From Parcubacteria bacterium RAAC4_OD1_1 (GTDB lineage Bacteria; Patescibacteriota; Minisyncoccia; Phycocordibacterales; UBA9973), in NCBI GenBank assembly GCA_000505065.1, contig AWSN01000001.1:132247-196246 (forward strand): DNA of 64,000 bases. The letters are read 5' to 3'. Both the position numbers and the translations under genes were made by a program. Shown here piece after piece: positions 8,333 through 52,315 of the stretch (positions are counted from its first letter, which is position 1; each line of letters opens with the position of its first letter). Under the pieces are notes generated by a model that saw only the letters and a list, made by a program, of their open reading frames with translations, had not been told where the DNA came from and did not search any database.

Positions 8333-8405
8333 GCCGAGATAGCTCAGTTGGTAGAGCGCTCCCCTGAAGAGGGATAGGTCCCCAGTTCGAGCCTGGGTCT
8401 CGGCA
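8333..8405 (+). tRNA. tRNA-Phe (anticodon GAA)
   Basis: Acceptor gccgaga/tctcggc, D-arm gctc-agttggta-gagc, anticodon loop ctGAAga, T-arm cccag-ttcgagc-ctggg. Confidence 0.85.
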
Positions 8406-8502
8406 CACAACATATGAACTACTTCATATGTGTCCAGGCGAGAAAGATTTTTCGTTATTTAATGTAATCATTAAATCGAAAAATACCTGGCTATGTAATA
8501 GC

Positions 8503-8522
8503 CGAGCCTGGGTCTCGGCACA
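8503..8522 (+). repeat. Exact 20 nt direct repeat of the tRNA-Phe 3' end (cgagcctgggtctcggcaca; first copy 8388-8407)
   Basis: Identical string 115 nt downstream; second copy preceded by gccgag, forming an acceptor/T-arm-like minihelix. Confidence 0.6.
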
Positions 8523-8527
8523 AAACA

Positions 8528-12003: not shown

Positions 12004-13188
12004 CTATAAAGATAAATTCCCATTGGCTTTGATGGAGCCCAGTTTTGTTGTATATTTTTTATTTTTATATTGGTAGTATCCTGCGATGGCGATCATAAGA
12101 GCATTGTCTCCTGTGTGGCCACGGCCCGGGAAGTGGGCTTTGATCTTTAGGAAGTCCGACTTCCTAACTTTTTTAATTTCATTAGTTATAACTTTTTTAA
12201 GTTGAGGAGAAGCAGAGACTCCACCTCCCACTATTAGGGTTTTGATTTTATATTCCCTTATTGCTTTCATTGTTTTATAAGAAAGCACTTCAAATGCTGC
12301 ATCTTCAAATTCTTTGGCAATTTTTCTTTTTATATCATCTGTAAGTTCTCCGATATCTCGTATCATATAAAGCACAGCAGTTTTAAGTCCTGAAAAAGAA
12401 AAATCATAATCTTTTGAATACATCATCGGACGGGGGAGTTTTATTTCTAGTATTTCACTCGAAATGTTATTCCCGTCAGCACGCAATAAATTTCTGCTGA
12501 AATTTTTGCTCGTGCTCGGCCCGTCGGCCTGCGCAAGGCTTTCTGGAACAACATTCTCTCGTTCCATACTAGCTAATTTTCCAATCTCTGGTCCGCCCGG
12601 GTAAGGGAGCCCCATCATACGAGCGACTTTGTCGAAAGCTTCTCCAACGGCATCATCGCGAGTTTGCCCAATTTTTTTGTATTTCATCCAATTTTTTATA
12701 AAAACAAGTTCCGTGTGTCCACCAGAAACAAGAAGTGTAAGCATTGGGAACAGTTCTTTGGTGTTTTTAATTGTGAAATTTTTTCCTTTTTTAGGAAATA
12801 TAGAAAATATATGTCCCTCCATATGGTTTACGGGTACTATTGGTAATTTATATTTTGAGGATAATTCTTTTGCAAAGACTATTCCAGTCCAAAGTGCAGG
12901 CTCAAGCCCTGGTCCAGTAGTGACAGCGATTGCATTTATTTTTTTATTAATATCTTTTTCTCTAATTTTTGCTTTTCTTAAAACTTTTTCAAATACAAGT
13001 GGCAGATTTTTTATATGCTCTCTTTTAGCAAGAGCAGGATAGACACCACCATATTCTTTATGGATATCTATCTGTGAAGAAACTTCATTTCCAAGTATTT
13101 TAAATTTTGTAGTTTTACCCTGTTGTTTAATCTCCACTATTGCTATGGCAGTCTCATCACAAGATGTTTCTATGGCTAATATTTTCAT
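12004..13188 (-). CDS. tsaD: tRNA N6-adenosine threonylcarbamoyltransferase TsaD (Kae1/Gcp), with ~30 aa GC-rich insertion
   Basis: MKILAIETSCDETAIAIV start, HMEGH metal site, C-terminal GDNALMIAIAG; insertion PESLAQADGPSTSKNFSRNLLRADGNNISSEI encoded by GC-rich DNA 12463-12560. Confidence 0.85.
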   Translation of the reverse strand: MKILAIETSCDETAIAIVEIKQQGKTTKFKILGNEVSSQIDIHKEYGGVYPALAKREHIKNLPLVFEKVLRKAKIREKDINKKINAIAVTTGPGLEPALWTGIVFAKELSSKYKLPIVPVNHMEGHIFSIFPKKGKNFTIKNTKELFPMLTLLVSGGHTELVFIKNWMKYKKIGQTRDDAVGEAFDKVARMMGLPYPGGPEIGKLASMERENVVPESLAQADGPSTSKNFSRNLLRADGNNISSEILEIKLPRPMMYSKDYDFSFSGLKTAVLYMIRDIGELTDDIKRKIAKEFEDAAFEVLSYKTMKAIREYKIKTLIVGGGVSASPQLKKVITNEIKKVRKSDFLKIKAHFPGRGHTGDNALMIAIAGYYQYKNKKYTTKLGSIKANGNLSL

Positions 13189-13830: not shown

Positions 13831-15285
13831 ATGAAAATACTAAATGAAATTTTAAAAGATATCATAATTTTAGAGTCAAAGGGAAACGTTGATACCCCTG
13901 TTTCTTCTGTGTCTTTAGATTCGAGAGATATAGAGCCCCATTCTTTGTTTGTTGCACTTATTGGTAATGTTTTAGACGGGCATTCTTTTATAGATGAAGT
14001 TGTTGAAAAAGGGGCCAAAGTTATAGTTCATGAGAAGGATTTAAGTGAATATAAATCTGGCGTGACTTATATTAAAGTAAAAGATACTCATGAAGCAGTT
14101 GGTATTATTGCAAGTAATTTTTATGGCAATCCGTCCAAGCATTTAAAGCTTGTTGGTGTGACAGGGACAAATGGTAAAACGACAACTGCAACACTTCTTC
14201 ATCAATTATTTAGAAATCTTGGTTATAAAGCTGGGATGATCGGCACAATAGTAAATAAAGTAAATGATGAATCTTATGAAGCTAAACGTACGACCCCAGA
14301 TCCTATTTCTCTAAATAAAATTCTTGCTGAAATGGTGGATAAAGGTTGCGAATATGTATTTATGGAAGTATCTTCTCATTCTATTTCAGAAAAAAGAGTT
14401 TCGGGTCTTTCTTTTGTAGGTGGAATATTTACAAACCTTACCCTTGATCATTTGGATTATCACAAGACTATAGAAAGTTATGCTGAAGCGAAAAAAGGTT
14501 TCTTTGATATGATTCCTAGTTCTGGTTTTGCAATTGCAAATATAGATGATGATATGGGGGAATATATGCTTTCTACTACTAAAGCAAAAAAATATGTATT
14601 TGGGTTAAAAAATGCAGAGGTCAGACCTATGCAAATTTTGCAGAGGTCAGACCTCTGCGGATCAGACCTCTGCGGATATTTTAATGAAAGATTAGAAACA
14701 AAATTAATTGGTGAATTTAATGCTTACAATATTTTAGGAATTTATGCTGTAGCGGTTTTGCTTGGACAAGATAAAGAAAAAATAAAAGAAATTATTAAAG
14801 ACTTAGATGGAGCTCCTGGCAGATTTCAAGCGATAAAAAATAACGATGGAATTATTGGAATTGTAGATTATGCTCATACTCCAGATGCATTAGAGAATGT
14901 TTTAAAAACTGCTAATGGTATAAAAAAAGATGGCAGGCTTATTGCTTTGGTTGGTTGTGGTGGAGATAGAGATAGAAGTAAAAGGCCGATAATGGCTCGT
15001 ATCGGATATGATTTAGCAGATATACTTATCCTTACATCTGATAATCCTCGCACCGAGAAGCCAGAAGATATTCTTATGGAAATGCAGAAAGGTTTACCTC
15101 TTGAAGCATTAGACAAAGTGGAAATAATTGTAGATAGGCATATGGCAATAGAAAAAGCATGCTCCATAGCAAAATCTGGAGATATCATTTTGGTTGCAGG
15201 AAAAGGTCACGAGAATTATCAAGAGGTCAATGGAGTTAAACACCATTTTGATGATTTGGAAGAGTTAGAAAAATATTTAAAATAA
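13831..15285 (+). CDS. murE: UDP-MurNAc-L-Ala-D-Glu:meso-DAP ligase MurE
   Basis: VGVTGTNGKTTT P-loop, DNPRTE MurE signature, Mur ligase C-terminal domain. Confidence 0.85.
   Translation: MKILNEILKDIIILESKGNVDTPVSSVSLDSRDIEPHSLFVALIGNVLDGHSFIDEVVEKGAKVIVHEKDLSEYKSGVTYIKVKDTHEAVGIIASNFYGNPSKHLKLVGVTGTNGKTTTATLLHQLFRNLGYKAGMIGTIVNKVNDESYEAKRTTPDPISLNKILAEMVDKGCEYVFMEVSSHSISEKRVSGLSFVGGIFTNLTLDHLDYHKTIESYAEAKKGFFDMIPSSGFAIANIDDDMGEYMLSTTKAKKYVFGLKNAEVRPMQILQRSDLCGSDLCGYFNERLETKLIGEFNAYNILGIYAVAVLLGQDKEKIKEIIKDLDGAPGRFQAIKNNDGIIGIVDYAHTPDALENVLKTANGIKKDGRLIALVGCGGDRDRSKRPIMARIGYDLADILILTSDNPRTEKPEDILMEMQKGLPLEALDKVEIIVDRHMAIEKACSIAKSGDIILVAGKGHENYQEVNGVKHHFDDLEELEKYLK
14613..14675. repeat. In-frame tandem GC-rich palindromic units (cagaggtcagacctctgcgg x about 2.5) inside murE
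   Basis: Unit is self-complementary (cagaggt-c-agacctctg); encodes AEVRPMQILQRSDLCGSDLCG in a variable loop of MurE. Confidence 0.6.
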
Positions 15286-16680
15286 ATGCAAAATTATAAA
15301 CAATTTTTTAAAGGGAAGAAGATTACAGTCATGGGGCTTGGGATACTTGGGCGTGGGGTAGGGTATACTAAGTTCTTGGCAGAGTGTGGTGCGGATTTAA
15401 TAGTGACAGACCTAAAGACTAAAGAACAACTCGCTATTTCAATTAAAGCTTTAGAAAAATTCTCCAGTCCTAAGCAAGGCTTGGGACCGATAAAATTTAT
15501 ATTAGGGGAACATAGGTTAGAAGATTTCAAGGGTAGGGATATGATTATAAAAGCTGCTGGGGTACCGTTTGATTCTATTTACATAAAAGAAGCTAAGAAA
15601 AATAATATTCCTATCGAGATGGATGTCTCACTGTTTGCTAAACTTGCGAGAGATGTAAAGATAGTAGGTGTGACAGGGACTCGTGGAAAAAGTATGACAA
15701 CAACTTTGATATATGAAATTCTATCAAAGAATATTAAAGATCAAAAAGTTTATATTGGTGGCAATCTTCGAGGAGTTGCCACATTGCCATTACTCAAAAA
15801 AGTAAAAGATGGAGATATTTTAATTTGTGAGCTAGATTCTTGGCAACTTCAAGGGTTTGGAGATAGTAAAATATCTCCAAACATTTCCGTCTTTACTTCT
15901 TTTATGCCTGATCATATGAATTATTATAAAAATAGTATGGAAAAGTATTTTGATGATAAGGCAAATATTTTTAAATATCAAAAAAAAGATGATGTTCTAA
16001 TAATTCGTCCAGGGATGAAAAGTTTTATAAAGAAATCTAATGTTAAAGGAAAATTAATTGTAATTAATCCAAACGATGTTATAGCTTGGAAATTTAATGT
16101 ATTAGGAGCTCACCATAGAGAGAATTTAGCATGTGCGGTAGAAGTAGCGAAGCAATTTGATATACCAATTTCTAAAATCAAAAAAACTGTAGCAGATTTT
16201 AAAGACTTAGAAGGTAGAATGCAATTACTTAGAGTTTATAAGGGGATAAAGATTTATAATGACAACAATGCCACAACCCCCGAAGCAACGATTGCAGGGC
16301 TTGAAGCCTTAAGTGATCAGCCAAAGGCCTTGCCTATGGCTAGCCATAGGCAAGGCCTTTGGCAAAAAAACATTATTCTTATTTGTGGTGGTGCTGATAA
16401 AAATTTACCACTTGAGAATCTTGTAAAAGTTGTAAATAAGAATTGTAAATTTATTTCTTTGATTCCTGGAGGCGGAACTGATAGGTTGTTGTCTAATAAA
16501 AATTTAAAAGTAAAAAGTTATAAAGGAACTGATTTTAAAGATATAATAATTACAGCAATTAATAATGCAAAAAGGGGAGATATCGTGATTCTTTCTCCAT
16601 CATTTGCTTCGTTTGGGATGTTTAATAATGAGTATGAAAGAAATGATTTATTTATGAAAATAGTCAAAAATTTAAAATGA
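15286..16680 (+). CDS. murD: UDP-MurNAc-L-Ala:D-Glu ligase MurD
   Basis: N-terminal GLGxxGRG Rossmann motif, VGVTGTRGKSMTTT P-loop, Mur ligase C-terminal domain. Confidence 0.85.
   Translation: MQNYKQFFKGKKITVMGLGILGRGVGYTKFLAECGADLIVTDLKTKEQLAISIKALEKFSSPKQGLGPIKFILGEHRLEDFKGRDMIIKAAGVPFDSIYIKEAKKNNIPIEMDVSLFAKLARDVKIVGVTGTRGKSMTTTLIYEILSKNIKDQKVYIGGNLRGVATLPLLKKVKDGDILICELDSWQLQGFGDSKISPNISVFTSFMPDHMNYYKNSMEKYFDDKANIFKYQKKDDVLIIRPGMKSFIKKSNVKGKLIVINPNDVIAWKFNVLGAHHRENLACAVEVAKQFDIPISKIKKTVADFKDLEGRMQLLRVYKGIKIYNDNNATTPEATIAGLEALSDQPKALPMASHRQGLWQKNIILICGGADKNLPLENLVKVVNKNCKFISLIPGGGTDRLLSNKNLKVKSYKGTDFKDIIITAINNAKRGDIVILSPSFASFGMFNNEYERNDLFMKIVKNLK
16320..16363. repeat. Perfect 44 nt palindrome (gccaaaggccttgcctatggc|tagccataggcaaggcctttggc) inserted in-frame in murD
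   Basis: Self-complementary over its full length; encodes QPKALPMASHRQGLW, absent from the conserved MurD core alignment. Confidence 0.65.
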
Positions 16681-20206: not shown

Positions 20207-20725
20207 ATGTCAATAAATAAAATTTGTGGGGGAGATAATTATACGTTTAATGATAAATCAATGACTATATCAATGCCAATTTCTGTCCCTCGATTTCCAG
20301 AAAAAATAATTTTCAATGATTATGATTTATCTTTAAAAATGACTTTCCATGTAACTCTCGTTCCCATTGGTGAATTAATAAAGAAACATAAGATTGAAAT
20401 TCCTAATTTTAATGATTTAATCTTAGAAGATTTTTGTAGTTTTGTTAATTCAAATAAAATTGAATTAATTAAATACAGAAATGAGTTTCGTTTTGTTGAA
20501 GAGAATGATCTAAGATCAGTAGTCATTATGTGTGATGTAACTAATTTAGATATTTTTTTCAAATTAATAAATGAAAAATATAATTTAAATTTAGAAACTT
20601 CACCAACTCACGTCACTTTATATATACTACCTGATAAGGGTGGAATATTTATACTTGATTCAGAAGATTTAAAAAATAAAACAGAATTAATAGAAATACC
20701 AGAATTAAGTAATTATTTAAAATAA
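20207..20725 (+). CDS. 2H phosphoesterase superfamily protein (LigT/ThpR-like)
   Basis: Two H-x-T-x motifs (FHVTLV and THVTLY) about 90 residues apart. Confidence 0.55.
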   Translation: MSINKICGGDNYTFNDKSMTISMPISVPRFPEKIIFNDYDLSLKMTFHVTLVPIGELIKKHKIEIPNFNDLILEDFCSFVNSNKIELIKYRNEFRFVEENDLRSVVIMCDVTNLDIFFKLINEKYNLNLETSPTHVTLYILPDKGGIFILDSEDLKNKTELIEIPELSNYLK

Positions 20726-21516: not shown

Positions 21517-22848
21517 ATGAATTTAGAATTATCAAAAATAAATAACGTTCACTTTATTGGTATTGGGGGTATCGGTATTTCGGCTGTGGCGAGAATGATG
21601 AAAGTAATGGGAAAGAATGTCACAGGGCAAGATATGCAAGATGGGGAGATTGTTAAGGAGTTAAAAAAGTTGAATATTGAAATAAACATCGGCCATCAAT
21701 CATATGAGAATATATCGGATGATACAGAGCTTGTTATTTATACTGTGGCAATTGAGACTTATGATAAAGAACTTTTTGAGAAATTAAAATCGCAAGATAA
21801 GTTTATTATTAAATCATATCCAGAAATGCTCGGAGTTATAAGTGAAGATAAATATACCATTGCTGTTTGTGGGACTCACGGCAAGACGACGACGACAGGA
21901 ATGCTCAAAGAGATATTTGTAGATAATGGGAGTGATCCAACAGTTATAGTGGGGAGTTTACTTAAAGATAAAGATGGATCTCGGACCAATTTTATTCATG
22001 GTACGGGCTCTCATTTTATAGTGGAAGCTTGCGAATATAGAAGGTCATTTTTAAATATCAATCCAGACATTGTAGTTATTACAAACATAGACAATGATCA
22101 TTTGGATTATTATAAAGATATAGAAGATATAAAAAGTGCTTTTCGTGCCTTTGTAGAAAAATTACCTGAAGATGGATATGTAGTTTGTAATATAGATGAT
22201 GAAAATATAAAGGATGTAGTAAATGGAATAAAAGCAAAGGTAATAAACTGGGGTGAGTATTTTGATGGAGAATTAAAACTTAAAATTCCAGGGATACATA
22301 ATAAGAAAAATGCGGCCGCTGCCACGGCTGTCGCCCTCACTTGTGGTATCTCAAAAGAAAAATCCCAGGAATATGTAAAAAATTTCCCTGGTACATGGAA
22401 GCGTTTTGAATTTAAGGGCAAGCTTCCAAATGGAGTGTTGGTCTATGATGACTATGCTCATCATCCTACAGAAATTACTTCAACCTTAGAGGGTTTTAGA
22501 GAAATTTATCCTAAAAGTAAAGGTTGGAATATCACAGTAATATTCCAACCACATCTTTTCTCTCGGACCAAGCTACTTCTTAATGATTTTGCACAGAGCT
22601 TTTATGATGCTGATCAAGTAATAATATTGCCTATATATTATGCTCGTGAAGTTGATGATGGTAGTATCTCATCTTTAATTTTATCAGACGAAATAAACAA
22701 ATTTACCCATAATTCTAAAGTCTTCCTTGATTTTAAATCATCCGAAAATTACTTGGGAGCTGAGCTCCCAAGTATGGGGGAGAAAAATATTATAGTTACA
22801 ATGGGGGCTGGGGAAGCCTCTAAAATAGGAGATATTATACTTAAATAG
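21517..22848 (+). CDS. murC: UDP-N-acetylmuramate:L-alanine ligase MurC
   Basis: HFIGIGGIGISAVA N-terminus, VCGTHGKTTTT P-loop, HNKKNAAAATAVAL region. Confidence 0.85.
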   Translation: MNLELSKINNVHFIGIGGIGISAVARMMKVMGKNVTGQDMQDGEIVKELKKLNIEINIGHQSYENISDDTELVIYTVAIETYDKELFEKLKSQDKFIIKSYPEMLGVISEDKYTIAVCGTHGKTTTTGMLKEIFVDNGSDPTVIVGSLLKDKDGSRTNFIHGTGSHFIVEACEYRRSFLNINPDIVVITNIDNDHLDYYKDIEDIKSAFRAFVEKLPEDGYVVCNIDDENIKDVVNGIKAKVINWGEYFDGELKLKIPGIHNKKNAAAATAVALTCGISKEKSQEYVKNFPGTWKRFEFKGKLPNGVLVYDDYAHHPTEITSTLEGFREIYPKSKGWNITVIFQPHLFSRTKLLLNDFAQSFYDADQVIILPIYYAREVDDGSISSLILSDEINKFTHNSKVFLDFKSSENYLGAELPSMGEKNIIVTMGAGEASKIGDIILK

Positions 22849-22870: not shown

Positions 22871-23665
22871 ATGAAGAATTTTTTTATTTATTTTATAATT
22901 ATCTCATCAATTTTTACTTCCAATTTAGCATTTGGAGCTGTTAATGAAAGTACAGGTCTTATTACAAAATCAGTTTGGTTTTCGAATGAATCTTTTAAAG
23001 ATGGAGATGATATAAAGATTTATACAGCTATATGGAATGGTGAAAGCTCAAAAATATTTGTTAAAGTAGAATTCTATGATAAGAGTGTAGTTTTAGGTAA
23101 TAGAGAAATAGAAGTACTTCCAGAGGAAATAAAAGAAGTTTCTATTCCTTTTAATGTTAAAAATGGGGATCATAGTATATATGCTAAAATTGTTTCATCT
23201 CAAATATTAAATTCAAAAGGAATTAAAGAAAAAATATCTTTGCCAATATCTAAAACAGAATGGAATAATATTACTGTCTCTTTTGGAGTGGAAGATGAAG
23301 CCACGGGGGAGGTAAAAACAAGTCAAGATTTTATTAAAGATGAATTATACAAAGCAAATAAAAGTTTTATTAATATTATTCCTGAGTCTATTCGTACTCC
23401 TATTTCAAATTCATTAAATAATATAGAGAATATTAGAAAAGAAAAATTAGAAGAAGTTTCTATTTCGAAGGAAAAAGCCAAAGAGAATGTTTTAAAATTG
23501 GAAAATAGTGAAATAGGTGAGGGAACAGAGAAACCCATAGCATTACTTCGTCACATTTTTCTATCCGCATTAGAGTTTATTTTAAATAATAAAATTATAT
23601 TTTATGGACTCATAATCTTTATAGTTTTTTATCTAATAAGGTTAATTTTTAAGAAAATATTGTAA
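22871..23665 (+). CDS. Hypothetical secreted protein with C-terminal TM anchor
   Basis: Signal peptide-like N-terminus, hydrophobic C-terminus. Confidence 0.35.
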   Translation: MKNFFIYFIIISSIFTSNLAFGAVNESTGLITKSVWFSNESFKDGDDIKIYTAIWNGESSKIFVKVEFYDKSVVLGNREIEVLPEEIKEVSIPFNVKNGDHSIYAKIVSSQILNSKGIKEKISLPISKTEWNNITVSFGVEDEATGEVKTSQDFIKDELYKANKSFINIIPESIRTPISNSLNNIENIRKEKLEEVSISKEKAKENVLKLENSEIGEGTEKPIALLRHIFLSALEFILNNKIIFYGLIIFIVFYLIRLIFKKIL

Positions 23666-40020: not shown

Positions 40021-41754
40021 ATGGATTATCAATCAGAAAACAAGGTGTGTCAGAATTGCAAAAATGACTTTACTGTCGAGCCAGAGGATTTTTTGTTCTA
40101 TAAGAAAATCAAAGTCCCAGCACCGACTTTTTGCCCGGATTGTAGAAGATCCCGAAGATGGTTATGGAGAAATGAAAGAACTTATTATAGAAGAAAATGT
40201 AATGCTCCAGGTCATGAGGAATTTATAATTAGTCTATATTCTCCAGAAGAAAAGAGAAAAATTTATTGTCAGGATTATTGGTGGAGTGATAAATGGGATA
40301 AGATGAATTATGGACAAAAATATGATTTTTCAAAACCCTTTTTTGAGCAGTATAATAATTTATTGCATAATATTCCTATAATTTCTTTATCCAATACACA
40401 ATCAGTAAATAGTGATTATTGTAGCTCTGCGGCTTGGAATAAGGATTGTTATTTATTAAGTGCTGCTGGTTGGAATGAAAATGTATTATATTCTAATCGT
40501 ACTTTTCATAATAAAAATTCTTTTGATTTATATTCAGTAGATAATAGTGAATTTTGTTATGATATTTCTTTTTGTAATAAATGTTATAAAATATTCTTTT
40601 CTTATAATTGTAATGGATGTGTTGAATCATATTTTTTATATAATTGTAGAAATTGTCAAAATTGTTTTGGTTGTGTGAATTTAAGAAATAAACAATATTG
40701 TATTTTAAATGAACAATATACAAAAGAAGAATATGAAAAAAGAATAAAAGAATTAAATTTAAATAATTATTCAAATTTAAAAAATATTAAAGATACTATT
40801 TATAAAAATGTTTATCTTAAAAATATACATAAATTTGCAGAAATAATAAATTGTCAAAATTCGACGGGAGATTATCTACAAAATTCTAATAATTGTAAAG
40901 AATGTTTTGATTTTAGTGGTGATAATAATGAAAACTGTAAATATGTTAATCTGAGTGGTTTTAATGCTAAAGATCTTTATGATACTGGCCCTGGGGCTGG
41001 CTGGGGATCATCTTTACTTTATGAAGGAGTTGATATAAACGATTCGGCAAATATCTTGAGTACTGTAGTTTGTTATAATTCAAATAATTGTTTTTACTGT
41101 TTTAATATTCAAAATTCGAGTAATTTATTTGGTTGTTATGGTTTACATTCCAAACAATACTGCATCCTAAACCACCAATACACCAAAGAACAATACGAAG
41201 AATTAGTCCCTAAAATAATAAAGCATATGAACGATATGCCATATATAGATAGTAAGAGTAGAGTATACAAATACGGAGAATTCTTCCCATCCGAACTCTC
41301 TCCCTTTGCCTATAATGAAACCATAGCTCAAGAATACTATCCTTTAACTAAAGAAGAAGCTTTAGAGCAAGGATATAAATGGAAAGATAAAGAAGAAAGA
41401 AATTACAATATAGATATTAAAAATAACGATATCCCAGATGATATTAATAACACAGATGAATCTATAGTAGGTAAAGTCATAGAATGCTCACATAAAGACT
41501 GTAATCATCAATGCACTGAAGCATTTAAGATAATCCCCGAAGAATACCAATTCTACCGCCGTATAAACCTTCCTCTCCCAAGACTCTGCCCTAACTGTAG
41601 GCACTACGAAAGACTCTCTCAAAGAAACCCTCTTAAACTCTGGCATAGATCCTGTATGAAAGAAGGATGCACCAATACTTTCGAGACATCATATGCACCA
41701 GATAGACCTGAAATAATTTATTGTGAGAAATGCTATCAGCAGGAGGTGTATTAA
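40021..41754 (+). CDS. Cysteine-rich repeat protein with duplicated N- and C-terminal zinc-ribbon modules; function unknown
   Basis: N-module CQNCK..F..EPEDFLFYKKIKVPAPTFCPDCRRSRR and C-module CTEAFKIIPEEYQFYRRINLPLPRLCPNCRHYER are homologous; internal repeats ...KQYCILNxQYTKExYE x2; about 50 Cys. Confidence 0.6.
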   Translation: MDYQSENKVCQNCKNDFTVEPEDFLFYKKIKVPAPTFCPDCRRSRRWLWRNERTYYRRKCNAPGHEEFIISLYSPEEKRKIYCQDYWWSDKWDKMNYGQKYDFSKPFFEQYNNLLHNIPIISLSNTQSVNSDYCSSAAWNKDCYLLSAAGWNENVLYSNRTFHNKNSFDLYSVDNSEFCYDISFCNKCYKIFFSYNCNGCVESYFLYNCRNCQNCFGCVNLRNKQYCILNEQYTKEEYEKRIKELNLNNYSNLKNIKDTIYKNVYLKNIHKFAEIINCQNSTGDYLQNSNNCKECFDFSGDNNENCKYVNLSGFNAKDLYDTGPGAGWGSSLLYEGVDINDSANILSTVVCYNSNNCFYCFNIQNSSNLFGCYGLHSKQYCILNHQYTKEQYEELVPKIIKHMNDMPYIDSKSRVYKYGEFFPSELSPFAYNETIAQEYYPLTKEEALEQGYKWKDKEERNYNIDIKNNDIPDDINNTDESIVGKVIECSHKDCNHQCTEAFKIIPEEYQFYRRINLPLPRLCPNCRHYERLSQRNPLKLWHRSCMKEGCTNTFETSYAPDRPEIIYCEKCYQQEVY

Positions 41755-44963: not shown

Positions 44964-44986
44964 TTTACCATTAAAAATAATTATTT

Positions 44987-45031
44987 TAAAACAAACAAAA
45001 CCCCGATTATTTCGGGGTTTTGTTTGTTTTA
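44987..45031. terminator. Perfect palindromic terminator (aaaacaaacaaaaccccg-attatt-cggggttttgtttgtttt)
   Basis: 18 bp stem, symmetric A/T runs. Confidence 0.6.
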
Positions 45032-45035
45032 AAAA

Positions 45036-45292: not shown

Positions 45293-46204
45293 TTATTGGT
45301 TAGTTGTACTTTTTGTTGCATCTTCGACCTCTTGTTCATCCTCTGTTTCTGTTTCATCTTCTATTTCTATCTCATCAATTTTAGGTATTTGAGCAAGAGC
45401 AACCGCAGCCTTTCTTACTGCATCATGAGTAGCTTTAATTTCTTCATATAAAGATTTAATATCAGCTCTAAATGTATCTCTAACAGCTTGCGTTGTTGTT
45501 TTTAGTGTTGATTCTTCTCCCACTTTTATTTCATATATTTTTTCTGATTGCTTAAGTAATGATTCTCTTGTGGTCGTTATTTTTGTTTTTGCAAGAGAAA
45601 TAGCATCTTCAACAGTTTTTACATCCAATCCTTTTTCTTTTGCCTTAGTTGTTCTTGACTCCACTCCAACAAGTACTGTTTCTATTTGATTTACTCTTTC
45701 TCCTAATTTTTCTACTATTTTAACATTTAATTCATCTAATTTATTATCAATTTTTATAAGTGCTTCTTTTTTCTTTTCATCTTTTATTTTAGCAAGACCT
45801 TCTTCAAATCTATTTTTTATTTCTTCTCTTTTTGCTTCCCATTCTTCTTTTGAAGCTTCAAATCTTGTTTTGAATTCTTCTCTTTTTTGTGTTATTTCTT
45901 TTATGACAGCTTCACGTTTTTCTTTAATATTATTTATTATGTCATCGTCTGTTATGTCATCATCCAAATCCTCTCTTGCTTTTGAAGCTTCTTCTCTAAA
46001 AGTTTCTCTTTCTTTTTCCATTTTTTCTTTTGTTTCTTCTCTTAGATTTTTAGCTTCTTCTCTTCTTTGTTCAAATCTATTTTCAACCTCTTCCATTTCT
46101 TCATTTTCACTAGAATCATCTTCAGCATAAACATAAAAACCCCCTAAGGCCAAAATAAGGCCAAAGAACACAATAAAACCATTTTTTAAATATTTTCTAA
46201 TCAT
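45293..46204 (-). CDS. Secreted/anchored Glu/Lys-rich coiled-coil protein
   Basis: N-terminal hydrophobic segment, then about 250 aa of charged heptad-like sequence. Confidence 0.4.
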   Translation of the reverse strand: MIRKYLKNGFIVFFGLILALGGFYVYAEDDSSENEEMEEVENRFEQRREEAKNLREETKEKMEKERETFREEASKAREDLDDDITDDDIINNIKEKREAVIKEITQKREEFKTRFEASKEEWEAKREEIKNRFEEGLAKIKDEKKKEALIKIDNKLDELNVKIVEKLGERVNQIETVLVGVESRTTKAKEKGLDVKTVEDAISLAKTKITTTRESLLKQSEKIYEIKVGEESTLKTTTQAVRDTFRADIKSLYEEIKATHDAVRKAAVALAQIPKIDEIEIEDETETEDEQEVEDATKSTTNQ

Positions 46205-49632: not shown

Positions 49633-50379
49633 CTATTTATTCAAATAATAAAGTCTTTTTGTTTCGGGGAGTCTTTCGATAGCATAACGAAGCATAGTGC
49701 GGGGCATTTTGTTTGAATTTTGATCTAAGTATGAAAGTAACTCCTTCTCATCCACCCTTTTACCCACCTCTCGGAGCATCCACCCACAAGCTTTATGAAT
49801 AAGATCATGTTTATCTTTCATAAGCATATCTGTGATTTTGAAAGTCCAATCTGCTTCTTTTTTATAAATAAAAGCGAAAGTAGAAATAATTGCAATACGT
49901 CTTTCCCATAAATTCTTCGATTTAGCTAACCTAGCAAGGACGGTCCTTGCTAGGTTTTTATTTTTATATAAATAGTCACCCAATATATAATGAGCAGATA
50001 AATCTACTAAATCCCAGTTATTTATATATTTGGTATTTTTCAAATAAAATTTTACAATTTTACTTTTTTCCCCTAGGTCCGACCTAGGGGAACTCGCTCC
50101 TAAGCCTTGCTTAGGAGCGGTTAATTTTTGATATTTTTGAACTAAAATCAAAAGGGCAACAAGACGGGCTTCATGATATTTATTATTTAATAATTCTTGT
50201 ATTTCTTTGAAGTCTATATGAGTATATTTCTTTGCGATACTTCTAGATACTGGAACGGTAATACCGAGGAATACATCTCCTTCCCCATATTCTCCTTTTC
50301 CAGTTTTGAAAAATCTAGTTAAGATTTTAGATTTATCTTTATTTTTTAATTTTAATAATTCATTGATAACCTTTGACAT
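49633..50379 (-). CDS. AlkD/AlkC-like HEAT-repeat DNA alkylation repair protein
   Basis: DNA_alkylation motifs (KTGKGEYGEGDVFLGITVP; NWDLVDLSA; HKACGWMLREVGKR); contains GC-rich in-frame palindromic segment. Confidence 0.6.
   Translation of the reverse strand: MSKVINELLKLKNKDKSKILTRFFKTGKGEYGEGDVFLGITVPVSRSIAKKYTHIDFKEIQELLNNKYHEARLVALLILVQKYQKLTAPKQGLGASSPRSDLGEKSKIVKFYLKNTKYINNWDLVDLSAHYILGDYLYKNKNLARTVLARLAKSKNLWERRIAIISTFAFIYKKEADWTFKITDMLMKDKHDLIHKACGWMLREVGKRVDEKELLSYLDQNSNKMPRTMLRYAIERLPETKRLYYLNK
50070..50119. repeat. Two adjacent GC-rich palindromes (cccctaggtc-c-gacctagggg; cgctcctaagc-ctt-gcttaggagcg) in-frame in the alkD-like gene; insertion status unresolved
   Basis: Self-complementary; encode ...KQGLGASSPRSDLGEK... 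Confidence 0.6.
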
Positions 50380-50584: not shown

Positions 50585-52315
50585 TTATATGAACAATCTC
50601 GCTATTCTTATATCTTCAAAACTCAGACTGTGTCCTTCTTTTTCTAATATTAATTTTATTGGATTTAATTTCCCCACTTCTTCCCCTTTCAATTTTTTAT
50701 TTACTTTTTTTACTAAGTCTATATTTTTCTGCGAAGGTTTAATATGAGAAATAATTGTTTCCGGATATTCTTTCATTATTTCTTCTATGTGGTGAGTGAT
50801 AGTACCTTGGGTAAGATTTCTTTCTTTTGCTATTTGTTTTATATTTTTTCCACTTTCCAATAATTCTTTGGTTACTAAAATGGTTGGGATTTTGGTGTCT
50901 ATAATTTTTCTTTTGCTTTTTCGGTGAGTTTTTGATGATGTGTCTAAAGTCCCACCCATTCTTTTTATAAAATCACTTTCCATTTTTTGTTGATCAGATT
51001 TATTTAGTTTACTAAAAACAATTTCATTTTCAGCACTTTCATTTTTTAATTCTTGATCAAATTTTAAAACTTCCGGATCTACTTTTAAAGCATTTTTATT
51101 TAAGCCTATCAATTTTATACCAGAAAGGGTCCGAACTCGAGAAAGAGCAACATACCCCATCCCATAAGCAAAGGTGCTTCTAAGGTCGATTTCTGCGTTA
51201 TCTAGGGACATTCCTTGGCTTTTGTGTATTGTTATGGCCCAGGCGAGGCGAAGTGGAAGCTGTGTTATGGAGGCTTTTATTTTGCCGTCTTCTTCTATAG
51301 CCCAAAGCATTGGGGTTATGGTCACAGTCTTACCGTTATATAGTTTTATTATTGGGTTATGGGTTTCAGGATCAAAATCTACCACTTTGCCTCGAGAGCC
51401 ATTTACATAACCACTTTCCATATTATTTTTAATACACATAATCTCGGCACCAATTTTTAGGCGAAGTTCTTCGTGGGCTAAACAACTTTTTTTCAAAATA
51501 TCAACAATGATATCATTTCCTTTAGAAGTCATATAATATATTTTTTCTTCAGCATCTATTTTTGAAAGTTCGGTGTGATTTTCATTGTCTACATTTACAT
51601 TGTGAGTATATAATTTTGTTGCTTTTTCATTATTATTTAATTTTGCGTCAATTCGTTTTTCTAAATATTTATAATGTTTATCTTCTGTATTATTGTCACG
51701 AATTGTATTTAATATTTCTGTTAAAATATTGTCTTCTTGTCTATGTTGCTCTGTTAAATAGCAAATTGCAGGATTTAATATTTTCCAAGCATCGCTTATA
51801 TAGACCATTTTTGTCCCACCAGTCGGACTGGTGGGATTACCCACTAGTCCGACTGGTGACTCTTCATATATTCGTTTTTCTACTGGTGGAAGCTGAAAGA
51901 AATCTCCAGAGAGTATTACTTGTAATCCACCAAAAGGTTTCTCTACTCTTTTAAATTTTCGGCAAACTTTTTCTATCATATCAAGTTGGTATCCATGAAG
52001 CATCGATATCTCATCTATTATTAGGACTCTGGCTTTCTCGAATCTGTTCCAGAGATATTTTTTCTCTTCGAGTTGATCAAGATCCCTTTCATCCATTTTG
52101 TTTTTAACACCTATCCCAGACCAGCCGTGTATAGTCATACCGTTCATATGAGTAGCGGCAATACCAGTCGAGGCCGTCACTGCGACAGCGATGTCGTGAT
52201 CTTGTAAATATGAAATGTATTGATTGAGTAAATATGTCTTACCAGAGCCTGCACTACCTGTCAGATAAATATTCACCCCAGTTTTCATAATTTTCAAAGC
52301 TTGTTCTTGGGTCAT
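50585..52315 (-). CDS. RecD/Pif1-like SF1 DNA helicase with C-terminal HTH
   Basis: Walker A GSAGSGKTY, Walker B LIIDEISM, SF1 motifs; C-terminal helix-turn-helix region. Confidence 0.7.
   Translation of the reverse strand: MTQEQALKIMKTGVNIYLTGSAGSGKTYLLNQYISYLQDHDIAVAVTASTGIAATHMNGMTIHGWSGIGVKNKMDERDLDQLEEKKYLWNRFEKARVLIIDEISMLHGYQLDMIEKVCRKFKRVEKPFGGLQVILSGDFFQLPPVEKRIYEESPVGLVGNPTSPTGGTKMVYISDAWKILNPAICYLTEQHRQEDNILTEILNTIRDNNTEDKHYKYLEKRIDAKLNNNEKATKLYTHNVNVDNENHTELSKIDAEEKIYYMTSKGNDIIVDILKKSCLAHEELRLKIGAEIMCIKNNMESGYVNGSRGKVVDFDPETHNPIIKLYNGKTVTITPMLWAIEEDGKIKASITQLPLRLAWAITIHKSQGMSLDNAEIDLRSTFAYGMGYVALSRVRTLSGIKLIGLNKNALKVDPEVLKFDQELKNESAENEIVFSKLNKSDQQKMESDFIKRMGGTLDTSSKTHRKSKRKIIDTKIPTILVTKELLESGKNIKQIAKERNLTQGTITHHIEEIMKEYPETIISHIKPSQKNIDLVKKVNKKLKGEEVGKLNPIKLILEKEGHSLSFEDIRIARLFI
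51815..51857. repeat. GC-rich palindrome pair (cccaccagtc-g-gactggtggg; cccactagtc-c-gactggtg) inserted in-frame in helicase
   Basis: Self-complementary; encode PVGLVGNPTSPTGG. Confidence 0.6.

Follow-up and report, generated by a model that had tools for sequence, protein, structure and literature searches.

A perfect 44-nt palindrome inside murD of a Parcubacteria bacterium belongs to a diverse population of intragenic GC-rich hairpins

Introduction

How does a perfect 44-nt palindrome come to lie in the middle of murD, and what becomes of it when the gene is expressed? The element occupies positions 16320-16363 of a 64,000-nt stretch of the genome of Parcubacteria bacterium RAAC4_OD1_1 (hereafter the window, i.e., the whole stretch of DNA that was analyzed, ~9% of the 693-kb genome). 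An earlier note on this DNA had described it as a very stable hairpin, devoid of a GTCnGAC core and hence of a second element type or a highly diverged one, and placed between two conserved blocks of MurD. Here, we characterize this palindrome, its distribution at the same site in orthologues and its relationship to other hairpins.

Results

The palindrome and its host gene

The murD gene (15286-16680, plus strand) is an intact ORF of 464 aa, and its product is 100% identical to the NCBI entry UDP-N-acetylmuramoyl-L-alanine--D-glutamate ligase of Candidatus Nomurabacteria bacterium. Sequence and ORF both bear out the palindrome: GCCAAAGGCCTTGCCTATGGCTAGCCATAGGCAAGGCCTTTGGC is identical to its reverse complement from end to end (44 nt). 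Its GC content is 59%, compared with 25-34% across the window and ~30% in the genome. Based on base composition (per-pair match ~0.26; 0.26^22 x 64,000 centres), a chance palindrome has an expectation of ~6e-9, and a search for the 22-nt arm with up to 3 mismatches returned only the element's own two arms (0.00 expected, 100 shuffles). A chance origin is excluded.

The 44-mer consists of two hairpin units joined head to head as a dimer. The left 21-nt unit (16320-16340), GCCAaAGGC-CTT-GCCTaTGGC, has a 9-bp stem with an A.A mismatch at stem position 5 and a CTT triloop; the right unit (16343-16363), GCCAtAGGC-AAG-GCCTtTGGC, is its exact reverse complement. They are separated by a TA spacer (16341-16342) at the symmetry axis, which reads GCTAGC when flanking bases are counted. 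The element has the apical core AGGC-CTT/AAG-GCCT and no GTCnGAC core; it represents a second sequence type within one architectural class that also includes the GTCnGAC palindromes. Flanking sequences are ...GTGATCA on the left and AAAAAAAC on the right.

As had been proposed, the predicted hairpin is very stable: 20 bp and about -41 kcal/mol as RNA (z = -7.1), and -25 kcal/mol as DNA (z = -9). A search of the window against Rfam 15 at gathering score returned five tRNAs only, with no RNA family match at the palindrome. No terminator-like site was detected between 15200 and 17400, the hairpin being followed by AAAAAAA and not by a U-tract.

In frame, the 44-mer encodes QPKALPMASHRQGLW, located between ...TIAGLEALSD and (QKN)IILICGGADKN, the two blocks named in the earlier note; the in-frame peptide is (Q)PKALPMASHRQGLW(Q). 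The insert corresponds to residues ~345-359, between a helix (332-342) and a strand (363-369). In the AlphaFold model of MurD (mean pLDDT 85.2), no stretch other than residues 346-358 falls below 50; these form a coil that links the helix to the strand, and the encoded residues are predicted to lie in a disordered surface loop. No signature of translational bypass was found in murD; the reading frame runs uninterrupted through the 44-mer, and preservation of the frame suggests that the element is translated. A second, smaller hairpin in murD (15467-15487), GTCCTAAGC-AAG-GCTTGGGAC, contains one T.G pair, encodes PKQGLGP and is missing from many orthologues in the alignment.

A recurrent insertion site in MurD orthologues

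Alignment with MurD orthologues, which the earlier note had suggested, showed the 44-mer to be an insertion. Among 74 readable orthologous sites, half (37) had a loop of 4-8 aa without a palindrome, typically EAL-KxxKKN-IIL. Palindromes with 8 or more net bp were present at 28 sites, 13 of which carried long dimers, and the remaining nine had extended loops that were degenerate or palindrome-free. The palindromes at this site represent at least nine unrelated sequence families, including GTCnGAC-type palindromes at the identical position in L016, L009, L050, L010 and L026. Their stems vary by paired changes among orthologues, with stabilities ranging from 8 to 26 bp. Degenerate hairpins were found in L078, L047, L044, L024 and L021 and agree with a cycle in which inserted copies later erode.

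In the MurD tree, the different states were interspersed: L009, with a double hairpin, is a sister of the empty L018, L079 (single) is a sister of the empty L063, and the sisters L032 and L041 carry different palindrome families. Across the lineage, the MurD site has gained and lost palindromes many times and constitutes a recurrent hotspot. No target-site duplication or conserved flanking motif was observed in a flank comparison of element boundaries.

The 44-mer itself was found in two other independent assemblies, each time in frame and at the same MurD position. An identical copy is present in a JGI metagenome contig from a 98.9%-identical strain (L082), and a copy with 43/44 identities in a Logan assembly from a different species (L081). 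The murD of the latter is only 72% identical to that of the window at the nucleotide level; the flanks diverge directly at both edges of the palindrome, and no recombination tract was detected around it in this comparison. A compensatory GCTAGC-to-GCATGC change was rejected as the cause of the S-to-C replacement in P0008, as the DNA of L081 differs at the axis by one substitution only, TT in place of TA. In L001, the nearest species representative, a 10-N scaffold gap coincides precisely with the MurD site and is flanked by CTGTCGG...CCGACAG.

Other hairpins in the window

Additional hairpins were detected in several genes of the window, with GTCnGAC-type palindromes in the genes for MurE, TsaD, an AlkD-like protein and a PIF1 helicase. 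In murE, a pair of GTCAGAC-type hairpins is accompanied by a 15-nt tandem duplication (14614-14675; AEVRPMQILQRSDLCGSDLCG). This hotspot is equivalent to that of MurD and holds other palindrome families in eight orthologues (L030, L040, L016, L071, L070, L042, L077 and L039). Single hairpins are present in tsaD on the minus strand (12147-12167, TTAGGAAGTCCGACTTCCTAA, GTCCGAC-type) and in murC (22750-22774, TACTTGGGAGCTGAGCTCCCAAGTA), the latter encoding YLGAELPSM and sharing its family with L013:1921 and L023:1788. The part of the gene encoding the C-terminal portion of LeuRS contains an imperfect GC-rich palindrome in frame (221-272; GAGGTCGAACCTC ... GAGGTTCGACCTC).

Three inserts occur in the gene for an AlkD-like DNA alkylation repair protein on the minus strand (49928-50119; individually 49928-49956, 50068-50092 and 50095-50119), where they encode NLARTVLARL, SSPRSDLGE and TAPKQGLGA. 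In addition, a 42-nt GTCGGAC/GTCCGAC double hairpin (SPVGLVGNPTSPTGG) lies inside the PIF1-like helicase gene, also on the minus strand (51817-51858). A Pfam scan of 40 ORFs in the window detected no transposase, HUH protein, recombinase or RAYT, and the remaining ORFs of the window appear by eye to be housekeeping genes.

A large population of in-frame hairpins

The 44-mer belongs to a large and diverse population of intragenic hairpins. In 622 kb of related DNA, we detected 87 GC-rich hairpins, compared with 2 in block-shuffled controls; for those with a score of at least 10, the numbers were 56 and 0. Members of the population as a whole ranged in size from 19 to 61 nt, and the inserts had a GC content of 45-60% within DNA of 30% GC. 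The majority (72/87) were located within long ORFs, and all 72 kept the host frame open and contained no stop codon. Arms were perfect, with spacers of 0-5 nt, and a common codon phase was shared by 21 of 23 long intragenic palindromes. None of 72 hairpins had a GTAG, CTAC, CGTC or GACG tag within 8 nt.

Mismatches within units were related to stop codons. In 11 of ~17 dimers with a unit mismatch, restoration of the perfect unit would generate TAG, TAA or TGA in the host frame. In the left unit of the 44-mer, returning position 5 to T changes CCA AAG to CCA TAG, an in-frame stop. The mismatch is mirrored on the opposite arm, so that the long palindrome stays perfect. Stop avoidance as the full cause of the unit mismatch was rejected, because changing the partner base instead is also stop-free.

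Occurrence of the unit family at other loci

When metagenomes were scanned with a degenerate 21-mer, 87 loci matched. Over half of these were set aside as chance matches in contigs of 45-70% GC or as an unrelated ATT-loop hairpin of a gut organism, and only ~30 AAG/CTT-loop matches in AT-rich contigs were informative. At these ~30 loci, perfect units of the form GCC[AT][AT]AGGC-AAG/CTT-GCCT[AT][AT]GGC were found in contigs of 29-41% GC. The loci, which share the AGGC-AAG-GCCT core, were intergenic or within ORFs, where the core was read in three frames (AIGKAYG, SHRQGLW and PKALPLA). Two to three copies of the unit occurred within 3-9 kb in L100, L107, L122 and L163. The exact 44-mer dimer had no further occurrence in the metagenome scan, and the window contained no second copy of its 21-nt unit. 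A scan of viral contigs gave a single match, and a phage vector was without support.

Other families showed a similar distribution. The 25-mer TTTCGCAAGGACAGTCCTTGCGAAA occurs in identical form in MurD of L033, where it encodes DFARTVLAK, and in a different gene of L060, where it encodes ISQGQSLRK. CCTGCCTGCGCAGGCAGG was found at no fewer than five MurD positions. Constant cores were also combined with perfect arms specific to individual loci, extending to 61 nt in L140, 55 nt in L124, 49 nt in L087 and 43 nt in L151 (within an ORF). Moreover, identical units of 21-25 nt and an identical 42/42-nt arm pair were present in unrelated genes and in distant genomes.

Discussion

A probable translated and tolerated insert

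The 44-mer is probably, though far from certainly, a non-autonomous selfish insert similar to REPs and RPEs, which belongs to an AGGC-AAG/CTT-GCCT family and is translated and tolerated without a role in MurD chemistry. It would be transcribed and read straight through, adding ~14-15 disordered residues to a permissive surface loop. According to this model, GC-rich hairpins with fast turnover in Paceibacteria/Nomurabacteria land both between and inside genes, and the intragenic survivors would be only those copies that have a length of 3n and are free of stops, which would lead to their accumulation at a few tolerant loops, i.e., hotspots. Units may spread by copy-paste of single-stranded hairpins, either by an HUH/Y1-type enzyme acting in trans or by copy-choice at the replication fork. 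The stable apical hairpin may seed inverted duplication or fold-back template switching, which would produce dimers and long perfect arms, and the same process could maintain arm perfection. The single mismatch in each unit might be what remains of stop-codon purging (TAG to AAG), copied to the opposite arm.

Such short hairpin insertions in housekeeping genes of this lineage apparently constitute an undescribed population; a search of the available literature turned up no account of comparable elements in CPR/Patescibacteria. In architecture, they resemble REPs, which have units of 20-40 nt, stems of 5-13 bp and short loops, are mobilized by RAYTs (IS200/IS605-type Y1) and occur predominantly as head-to-head dimers, known as REPINs or BIMEs (PMC3733652). 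Some REP families have an unpaired base at stem position 5, and REPs are occasionally intragenic, with different REPs near one recB site in two Xanthomonas species (PMC3733652). Likewise, the unit of the 44-mer is a short imperfect palindrome (9-bp stem, one mismatch, 3-nt loop), and two units joined head to head across the TA spacer form a larger perfect hairpin. However, our hairpins lack the GTAG/CGTC tag and are mainly intragenic, the 44-mer lying mid-murD, whereas REPs are mostly extragenic and downstream of genes. Many stem variants were observed here in contrast to the one abundant, near-identical family per genome that characterizes REPs, the host is an AT-rich CPR bacterium outside the phyla listed for REPs, and no RAYT gene was seen in the window, which covers ~9% of the genome.

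Rickettsia palindromic elements (RPEs) are selfish palindromic repeats that, in a reduced genome, lie in frame within housekeeping ORFs unrelated to one another, and their presence is considered compatible with the folding and function of the proteins (PMC10969869); identity of their repeats fades with time (PMC6649704). In-frame palindromic inserts in housekeeping ORFs and degenerate copies are common to both systems. RPEs, however, are ~150 bp long (~100-150), encode a conserved peptide, are Rickettsia-specific and are CGTC-tagged, whereas the elements described here are 19-61 nt long (44 nt for the 44-mer), are read in several frames and are untagged.

An analogy of form only, given that our host is a bacterium, is provided by GC clusters of yeast mitochondria, which are likewise GC-rich palindromes of ~30-60 nt in an AT-rich genome with a sporadic distribution in relatives. 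The GC42 element, for instance, is rich in GC and ~42 nt long, whereas the genome around its palindrome is very AT-rich; it shows rapid turnover, horizontal exchange and fast diversification, with merger or shuffling giving rise to new elements (PMC4478555). Unlike our elements, GC clusters are organellar and mainly intergenic, and putative target-site duplications have been reported for them. Mitochondrial genes of Nematomorpha contain translated perfect inverted repeats with scattered gains and losses between species, and the 'binary' identity of their arms suggests active conversion or template switching (PMC6649704). In that case, both arms encode conserved protein parts and repeats reach 284 bp, whereas the palindrome in murD is an extra, non-conserved GC-rich loop insert. 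A MITE is not indicated, the boundaries of the 44-mer being without target-site duplication, direct repeats or conserved bases, and the A-tract that follows the hairpin also distinguishes it from an intrinsic terminator.

Several observations count against a selfish insert. No mobilizing gene was seen among the 40 scanned ORFs of a window that makes up only ~9% of the genome, neither target-site duplication nor a conserved flanking motif was found, and the unit of the 44-mer is single-copy in the window. Diversity of stems is difficult to reconcile with sequence-specific transposases, and the near-identity of the palindrome, at precisely the same nucleotide position, in the 72%-identical orthologue could also mean selection on its sequence. 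Nor does the model account for the shared codon phase of 21 of the 23 long palindromes.

A bolder reading, which we put forward tentatively, is that Paceibacteria (CPR) may hold a new class of ultra-short 'palindrome seeds', stable GC-rich apical mini-hairpins (e.g., AGGC-AAG-GCCT or GTC-N-GAC) that would spread with no dedicated sequence-specific transposase and then grow by fold-back template switching into perfect coding palindromes of 40-60 nt. Surface loops of essential proteins would then be continually remodelled at recurrent hotspots. If true, this would represent a distinct, structure-driven mode of DNA mobility or mutation and a source of novelty in protein loops, which the limited set of repair functions and nucleases in these bacteria might make possible.

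Alternative explanations

It is unlikely that the 44-mer is a functional structure under selection, such as a site in the RNA where translation pauses between MurD sub-domains, an element for RNase III or mRNA stability, a protein-binding site or a DNA cruciform. Maintenance of hairpin potential at 28 of 74 MurD sites with paired stem changes is consistent with such a function, as are the 43/44 identity of the palindrome in a much more divergent gene, the very stable predicted hairpin and the strong codon-phase bias. On the other hand, half of the orthologues are hairpin-free, sister taxa differ in both state and family, stabilities vary widely and degenerate copies exist at the site. In addition, members of these families turn up at unrelated sites of many genes, where different frames are used, and also between genes, and the 44-mer has neither an Rfam family nor a terminator-like context.

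A purely local origin, in which a quasi-palindrome gave rise to the 44-mer in place through replication template switching or through fold-back synthesis, with no mobile family or copy-paste, is similarly improbable. Quasipalindrome template-switch mutagenesis, according to work cited in PMC6649704, converts imperfect inverted repeats into perfect ones and makes inverted duplications, and template switching has been proposed for the coding palindromes of Nematomorpha mitochondria (PMC6649704). This process fits perfect arms, base changes that are mirrored between arms and the outer arms that are specific to individual loci in many cases, and it agrees with the short spacers and the lack of target duplications. 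It does not account for identical GC-rich units and the 42/42-nt arm pair at unrelated loci and in distant genomes, and inserts of such elevated GC content in 30% GC DNA cannot be copies of local sequence.

Translational bypassing is exemplified by the 'byp' elements of Magnusiomyces mitochondria and by T4 gene 60. That the 44-mer is untranslated, being removed from the message, bypassed by the ribosome or excised by an unknown RNA mechanism, is very unlikely, even though a predicted hairpin as stable as -41 kcal/mol could plausibly act as a signal for bypass or processing. Elements of the byp/gene 60 type interrupt the frame and have take-off and landing codons that match; the 44-mer leaves the frame open, with no stop or frameshift, as is the case for all 72 intragenic hairpins, and the 11 unit mismatches that coincide with would-be stops would matter only if translated. 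Moreover, as 44 is not divisible by 3, excising the element cleanly would put the gene out of frame. Bypassed palindromic inserts are known in yeast mitochondria, as mentioned among the works that PMC6649704 cites. Finally, an artefact of assembly or sequencing (a chimeric junction or adapter palindrome), a concern raised in the earlier note, is effectively refuted: palindromes do disturb assemblies, as the gap of L001 illustrates, but the 44-mer recurs in frame in the JGI and Logan contigs, preserves the ORF and has dozens of analogues in independent assemblies.

Implications

If the 44-mer and its relatives are indeed selfish inserts, a major uncultivated bacterial lineage would carry approximately one selfish hairpin per 7 kb, mostly in housekeeping genes; host genes in the window include the cell-wall ligases MurC, MurD and MurE as well as LeuRS, TsaD and the PIF1 helicase. 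This would raise the question of how perfect palindromes of 40-60 bp persist and spread in a 0.7-Mb genome, and the presence of many young copies and many empty sites would make the long-standing question of the origin of REP-like elements testable. These elements inflate and fragment alignments of CPR proteins, break assemblies (as in L001) and can be mistaken for lineage-specific protein motifs. Under the selfish reading, recurrent, frame-independent insertions of 7-18 residues into the same loops would amount to a natural experiment on loop tolerance, and every ribosome would have to unwind hairpins of about -40 kcal/mol midway through essential mRNAs.

Results

Anatomy of the palindrome in murD

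The sequence at 16320-16363 (GCCAAAGGCCTTGCCTATGGCTAGCCATAGGCAAGGCCTTTGGC) is identical to its reverse complement across all 44 nt, which confirms the perfect palindrome described in the earlier note. It lies in the ORF at 15286-16680(+), whose 464-aa product matches an NCBI MurD of Candidatus Nomurabacteria bacterium (693,530-bp contig) at 100% identity, and its in-frame translation is QPKALPMASHRQGLW. GC content is 59% in the 44-mer and 25-34% in the surrounding window. By our own calculation from base composition, ~6e-9 perfect 22-pair palindromes are expected per 64 kb. The exact unit occurs once in the 64-kb window, and a search there with the 22-nt arm (up to 3 mismatches) matched only the 44-mer's own two arms (0.00 expected from shuffles).

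The element is laid out as a head-to-head dimer, GCCAaAGGC-CTT-GCCTaTGGC + TA + GCCAtAGGC-AAG-GCCTtTGGC. The 21-nt units each have a 9-bp stem capped by a triloop, with a single mismatch at stem position 5; the long dimeric form pairs perfectly. That this form would make a very stable hairpin is borne out by folding predictions, both as RNA (~-41 kcal/mol, z = -7.1) and as single-stranded DNA (-25 kcal/mol, z = -9). No T/U tract follows the 44-mer on its 3' side, a terminator scan found it not terminator-like, and an Rfam search gave no family match.

Three independent assemblies contain the 44-mer or a near-identical copy: that of the window, a metagenome contig (JGI) of a strain that is 98.9% identical (L082), and a Logan assembly (L081) representing another species, whose MurD is 73% identical at the amino acid and 72% at the nucleotide level. 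The L082 copy is identical, and the L081 copy matches at 43 of 44 positions, the axis dinucleotide TA being replaced by TT. Both occupy the same codon position as in the window, and this preservation of frame suggests that the 44-mer is translated. The AlphaFold2 model of the window MurD (mean pLDDT 85.2) has a single segment with pLDDT below 50, residues 346-358, which are exactly the palindrome-encoded residues. They are modelled as coil between a helix (332-342) and a strand (363-369), and may form a disordered loop.

Insertion hotspots in murD and murE

The MurD segment that joins the helix ...EATIAGLEAL to the strand IILICGG was compared in a protein alignment of 40 relatives and in DNA of 80 species representatives, with 74 sites readable. 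This orthologue alignment, which the earlier note had proposed as a check, revealed an insertion hotspot. Half of the sites (37/74) have no palindrome and a short loop of 4-8 residues, typically K-x-x-K-K-N; 28 carry a palindrome with 8 or more net base pairs, 13 of these being long dimers (37-53 nt); and in the other 9 the loop is extended and either degenerate or palindrome-free. At least nine unrelated sequence families are represented among the long palindromes, for example GCCCGAAGTCAGACTTAGGGC-TA-GCCCTAAGTCTGACTTCGGGC in L016, GCCCCGAACCCGGTTCAGGGC-TA-GCCCTGAACCGGGTTCGGGGC in L002, TCCCGGACACCTGGTGTCCGGGA-A-CCCGGACACCAGGTGTCCGGGA in L039 and a 53-mer in L059. The three states (empty, single and double) and the families are intermingled on a neighbour-joining MurD tree, implying many gains, losses or replacements. 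Copies also decay, since degenerate hairpins were seen at this site in five loci (L078, L047, L044, L024 and L021). Judged from these sequence comparisons, the 44-mer is an insertion at the MurD hotspot.

In L001 (CAZUAA010000003.1), which is the closest species representative, a scaffold gap of 10 Ns (L001:4085-4094) falls exactly at the hotspot, flanked by CTGTCGG...CCGACAG and preceded by low-complexity C-rich sequence. This assembly appears to have been broken by a palindrome, and palindromes at this site can break assemblies.

A conserved-looking insert, ENPPS(H/R)KA(T/I)AG(Q/R)R(K/N), was also observed at the hotspot in L006, L028 and the proteins P0018, P0020 and P0025. No palindrome is detectable in it (score 4-5), and an old element may have eroded there and become fixed as a peptide. 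At least ten further positions in MurD of this lineage have short inserts in some species (alignment columns ~176-200, 230-260, 340-363 and 546-562). Some are palindromic, such as LPAQAG, encoded by CCTGCCTGCGCAGGCAGG, a sequence found at five or more MurD positions; others are apparently non-palindromic (e.g., SSSAKATAGRG, NPVKSRSPQGDRSTRFARAASNGV) and may represent decayed elements or be of another kind.

A corresponding hotspot exists in MurE; it is occupied at 14614-14675 in the window and by other families in eight other loci. Adjoining the window MurE palindrome is a 15-nt direct tandem duplication (14644-14675; GGTCAGACCTCTGCG / GATCAGACCTCTGCG) encoding RSDLCGSDLCG. The murE hairpin units are direct rather than inverted copies, because GTCAGAC is present in both, and thus both modes of duplication occur.

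Abundance and shared families

In 622 kb comprising the window and 81 loci of related DNA, we counted 87 GC-rich hairpins with a net score of at least 8, versus 2 in block-shuffled controls; at a score of at least 10 the counts were 56 and 0. Long ORFs contain 72 of the 87 (coding fraction 93%), and the frame is open in all 72. Host genes in the window encode LeuRS, TsaD, MurE, MurD (two hairpins), MurC, an AlkD-like repair protein (three) and a PIF1-like helicase.

The apical core AGGC-AAG/CTT-GCCT of the 44-mer recurs in MurD-site palindromes of L013, L032 and L060 and in single hairpins of L007, L030, L046 and L062 (peptide ...RQGL...). A metagenome scan with the degenerate unit returned 87 loci, among which matches on GC-rich contigs were at chance level. 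About 30 lie on contigs of 29-41% GC and have perfect units, GCC[AT][AT]AGGC-AAG/CTT-GCCT[AT][AT]GGC, either intergenic or within ORFs in three frames (AIGKAYG/AIGLAYG, SHRQGLW and PKALPLA); L100, L107, L122 and L163 contain 2-3 copies within a few kb. One 25-mer, TTTCGCAAGGACAGTCCTTGCGAAA, encodes DFARTVLAK in MurD of L033 and, in identical form, ISQGQSLRK in another gene of L060, and dimers of CCCCGAAACCNGGTTTAGGGG occur in MurE of L016 and in MurD of L008 and L041. The same hairpin DNA is thus found in several frames and genes, so that what is inherited is the hairpin as DNA rather than the peptide it encodes.

Signs of purging and of palindrome formation

Among ~17 dimers whose units have a single mismatch, 11 would gain an in-frame stop (TAG, TAA or TGA) if the perfect unit were restored; in the window 44-mer, CCA AAG would turn into CCA TAG. 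The opposite arm of these dimers carries the mirrored base change and the long palindrome remains perfect, as expected if perfect units landed in ORFs and were purged of stops, and the dimer then arose by inverted duplication of the purged unit or was corrected by templated repair. Stop purging was rejected as a full account of the unit mismatch; it explains it only in part, the alternative repair being equally stop-free.

Many single units are nested in larger, perfect palindromes, each with AT-rich outer arms not shared with other loci. Such 21-nt GC-rich cores were found on metagenome contigs within palindromes of 61 nt (L140:2574-2634), 55 nt (L124:48-102), 49 nt (L087:1022-1070) and, inside an ORF, 43 nt (L151:1871-1913). 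The locus-specific arms point to copying of the flank in inverted form across the core, by fold-back or template switch seeded by the stable apical hairpin.

Among long intragenic palindromes of the window and L002-L081, 21 of 23 are in codon-antiparallel phase (position 1 pairing with 3, and 2 with 2), in which the codons of one arm are reverse complements of those of the other; this bias may partly reflect non-independence, as many of the 23 share two hotspots. Short single hairpins favour the phase pairing position 1 with 2 and 3 with 3 (29/72).

Other features of the window

The last ~18 nt of tRNA-Phe (8333-8406), GAGCCTGGGTCTCGGCAC, are repeated ~100 nt downstream within ...ATAGCCGAGCCTGGGTCTCGGCACAAAAC (8488-8524), which looks like an att-type scar left by an integrative element at the 3' end of the tRNA or a tRNA-derived mini-hairpin. 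Cumulative GC skew peaks at ~44 kb, and at ~42000-46000 gene orientation flips from the + to the - strand, making transcription convergent, a pattern that would fit a replication terminus within the window. A perfect inverted repeat with 23-nt arms (44984-45034) lies in the same region. The ORF at 40021-41751(+) encodes 577 aa, cysteine-rich with many CxxC pairs; neither it nor the ORFs at 20207-20722, 22871-23662 and 45296-46204 had a Pfam match.

Discussion

By architecture, the closest known systems are REPINs, which are head-to-head dimers of REPs. REPs are occasionally intragenic, and different REPs share one recB site in Xanthomonas (PMC3733652); however, when the GTAG/CGTC tag and extragenic location that define REPs were tested, the elements described here had neither. 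By biology, Rickettsia RPEs are closest, as in-frame insertions in the housekeeping genes of an organism with a reduced genome (PMC10969869), but they are ~150 bp long with a conserved coding frame, whereas the present element has 44 nt. RPE copies are reported to decay (PMC6649704), and in this the MurD-site hairpins resemble them. Yeast mitochondrial GC clusters such as GC42 are closest in form (PMC4478555). For perfect palindromes in coding genes the closest case is that of Nematomorpha mitochondria, where template switching or conversion has been put forward (PMC6649704). No account of such elements in CPR/Patescibacteria came up in a full-text literature search, whose incomplete coverage makes this absence of evidence only.

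Flanking sequences lack both a target-site duplication and a conserved motif, GTAG and CGTC tags adjoin 0 of 72 hairpins, and no co-converted stretch can be made out when the window is compared with L081, as identity collapses at either edge of the 44-mer. A Pfam scan of 40 ORFs in the window, which is ~9% of the genome, turned up no RAYT or other transposase, no HUH protein and no recombinase; the remaining ORFs look housekeeping-like. Together with the single copy in the window, these results argue against a classical transposon.

A selected regulatory structure is unlikely, as many orthologues are empty, families are mixed among sister taxa, hairpins are scattered over genes and frames, and decayed copies exist. 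We similarly doubt a purely local origin through template switching, since identical GC-rich units occur at unrelated loci and in unrelated genomes. Bypass or excision of the insert seems very improbable, and an assembly artefact, a source considered in the earlier note, is scarcely credible given the recurrence in L082 and L081.

The earlier interpretation is supported overall. The 44-mer probably belongs to the intragenic selfish palindromes, as a REP/RPE-like insert that is translated and tolerated in a disordered loop. The population of hairpin inserts to which it belongs would turn over fast, with intragenic survivors concentrated at few permissive loops, and inverted duplication or template switching would generate or maintain dimers and perfect arms. 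The 44-mer looks like a clean, young example of a seemingly pervasive, undescribed feature of Paceibacteria genomes.
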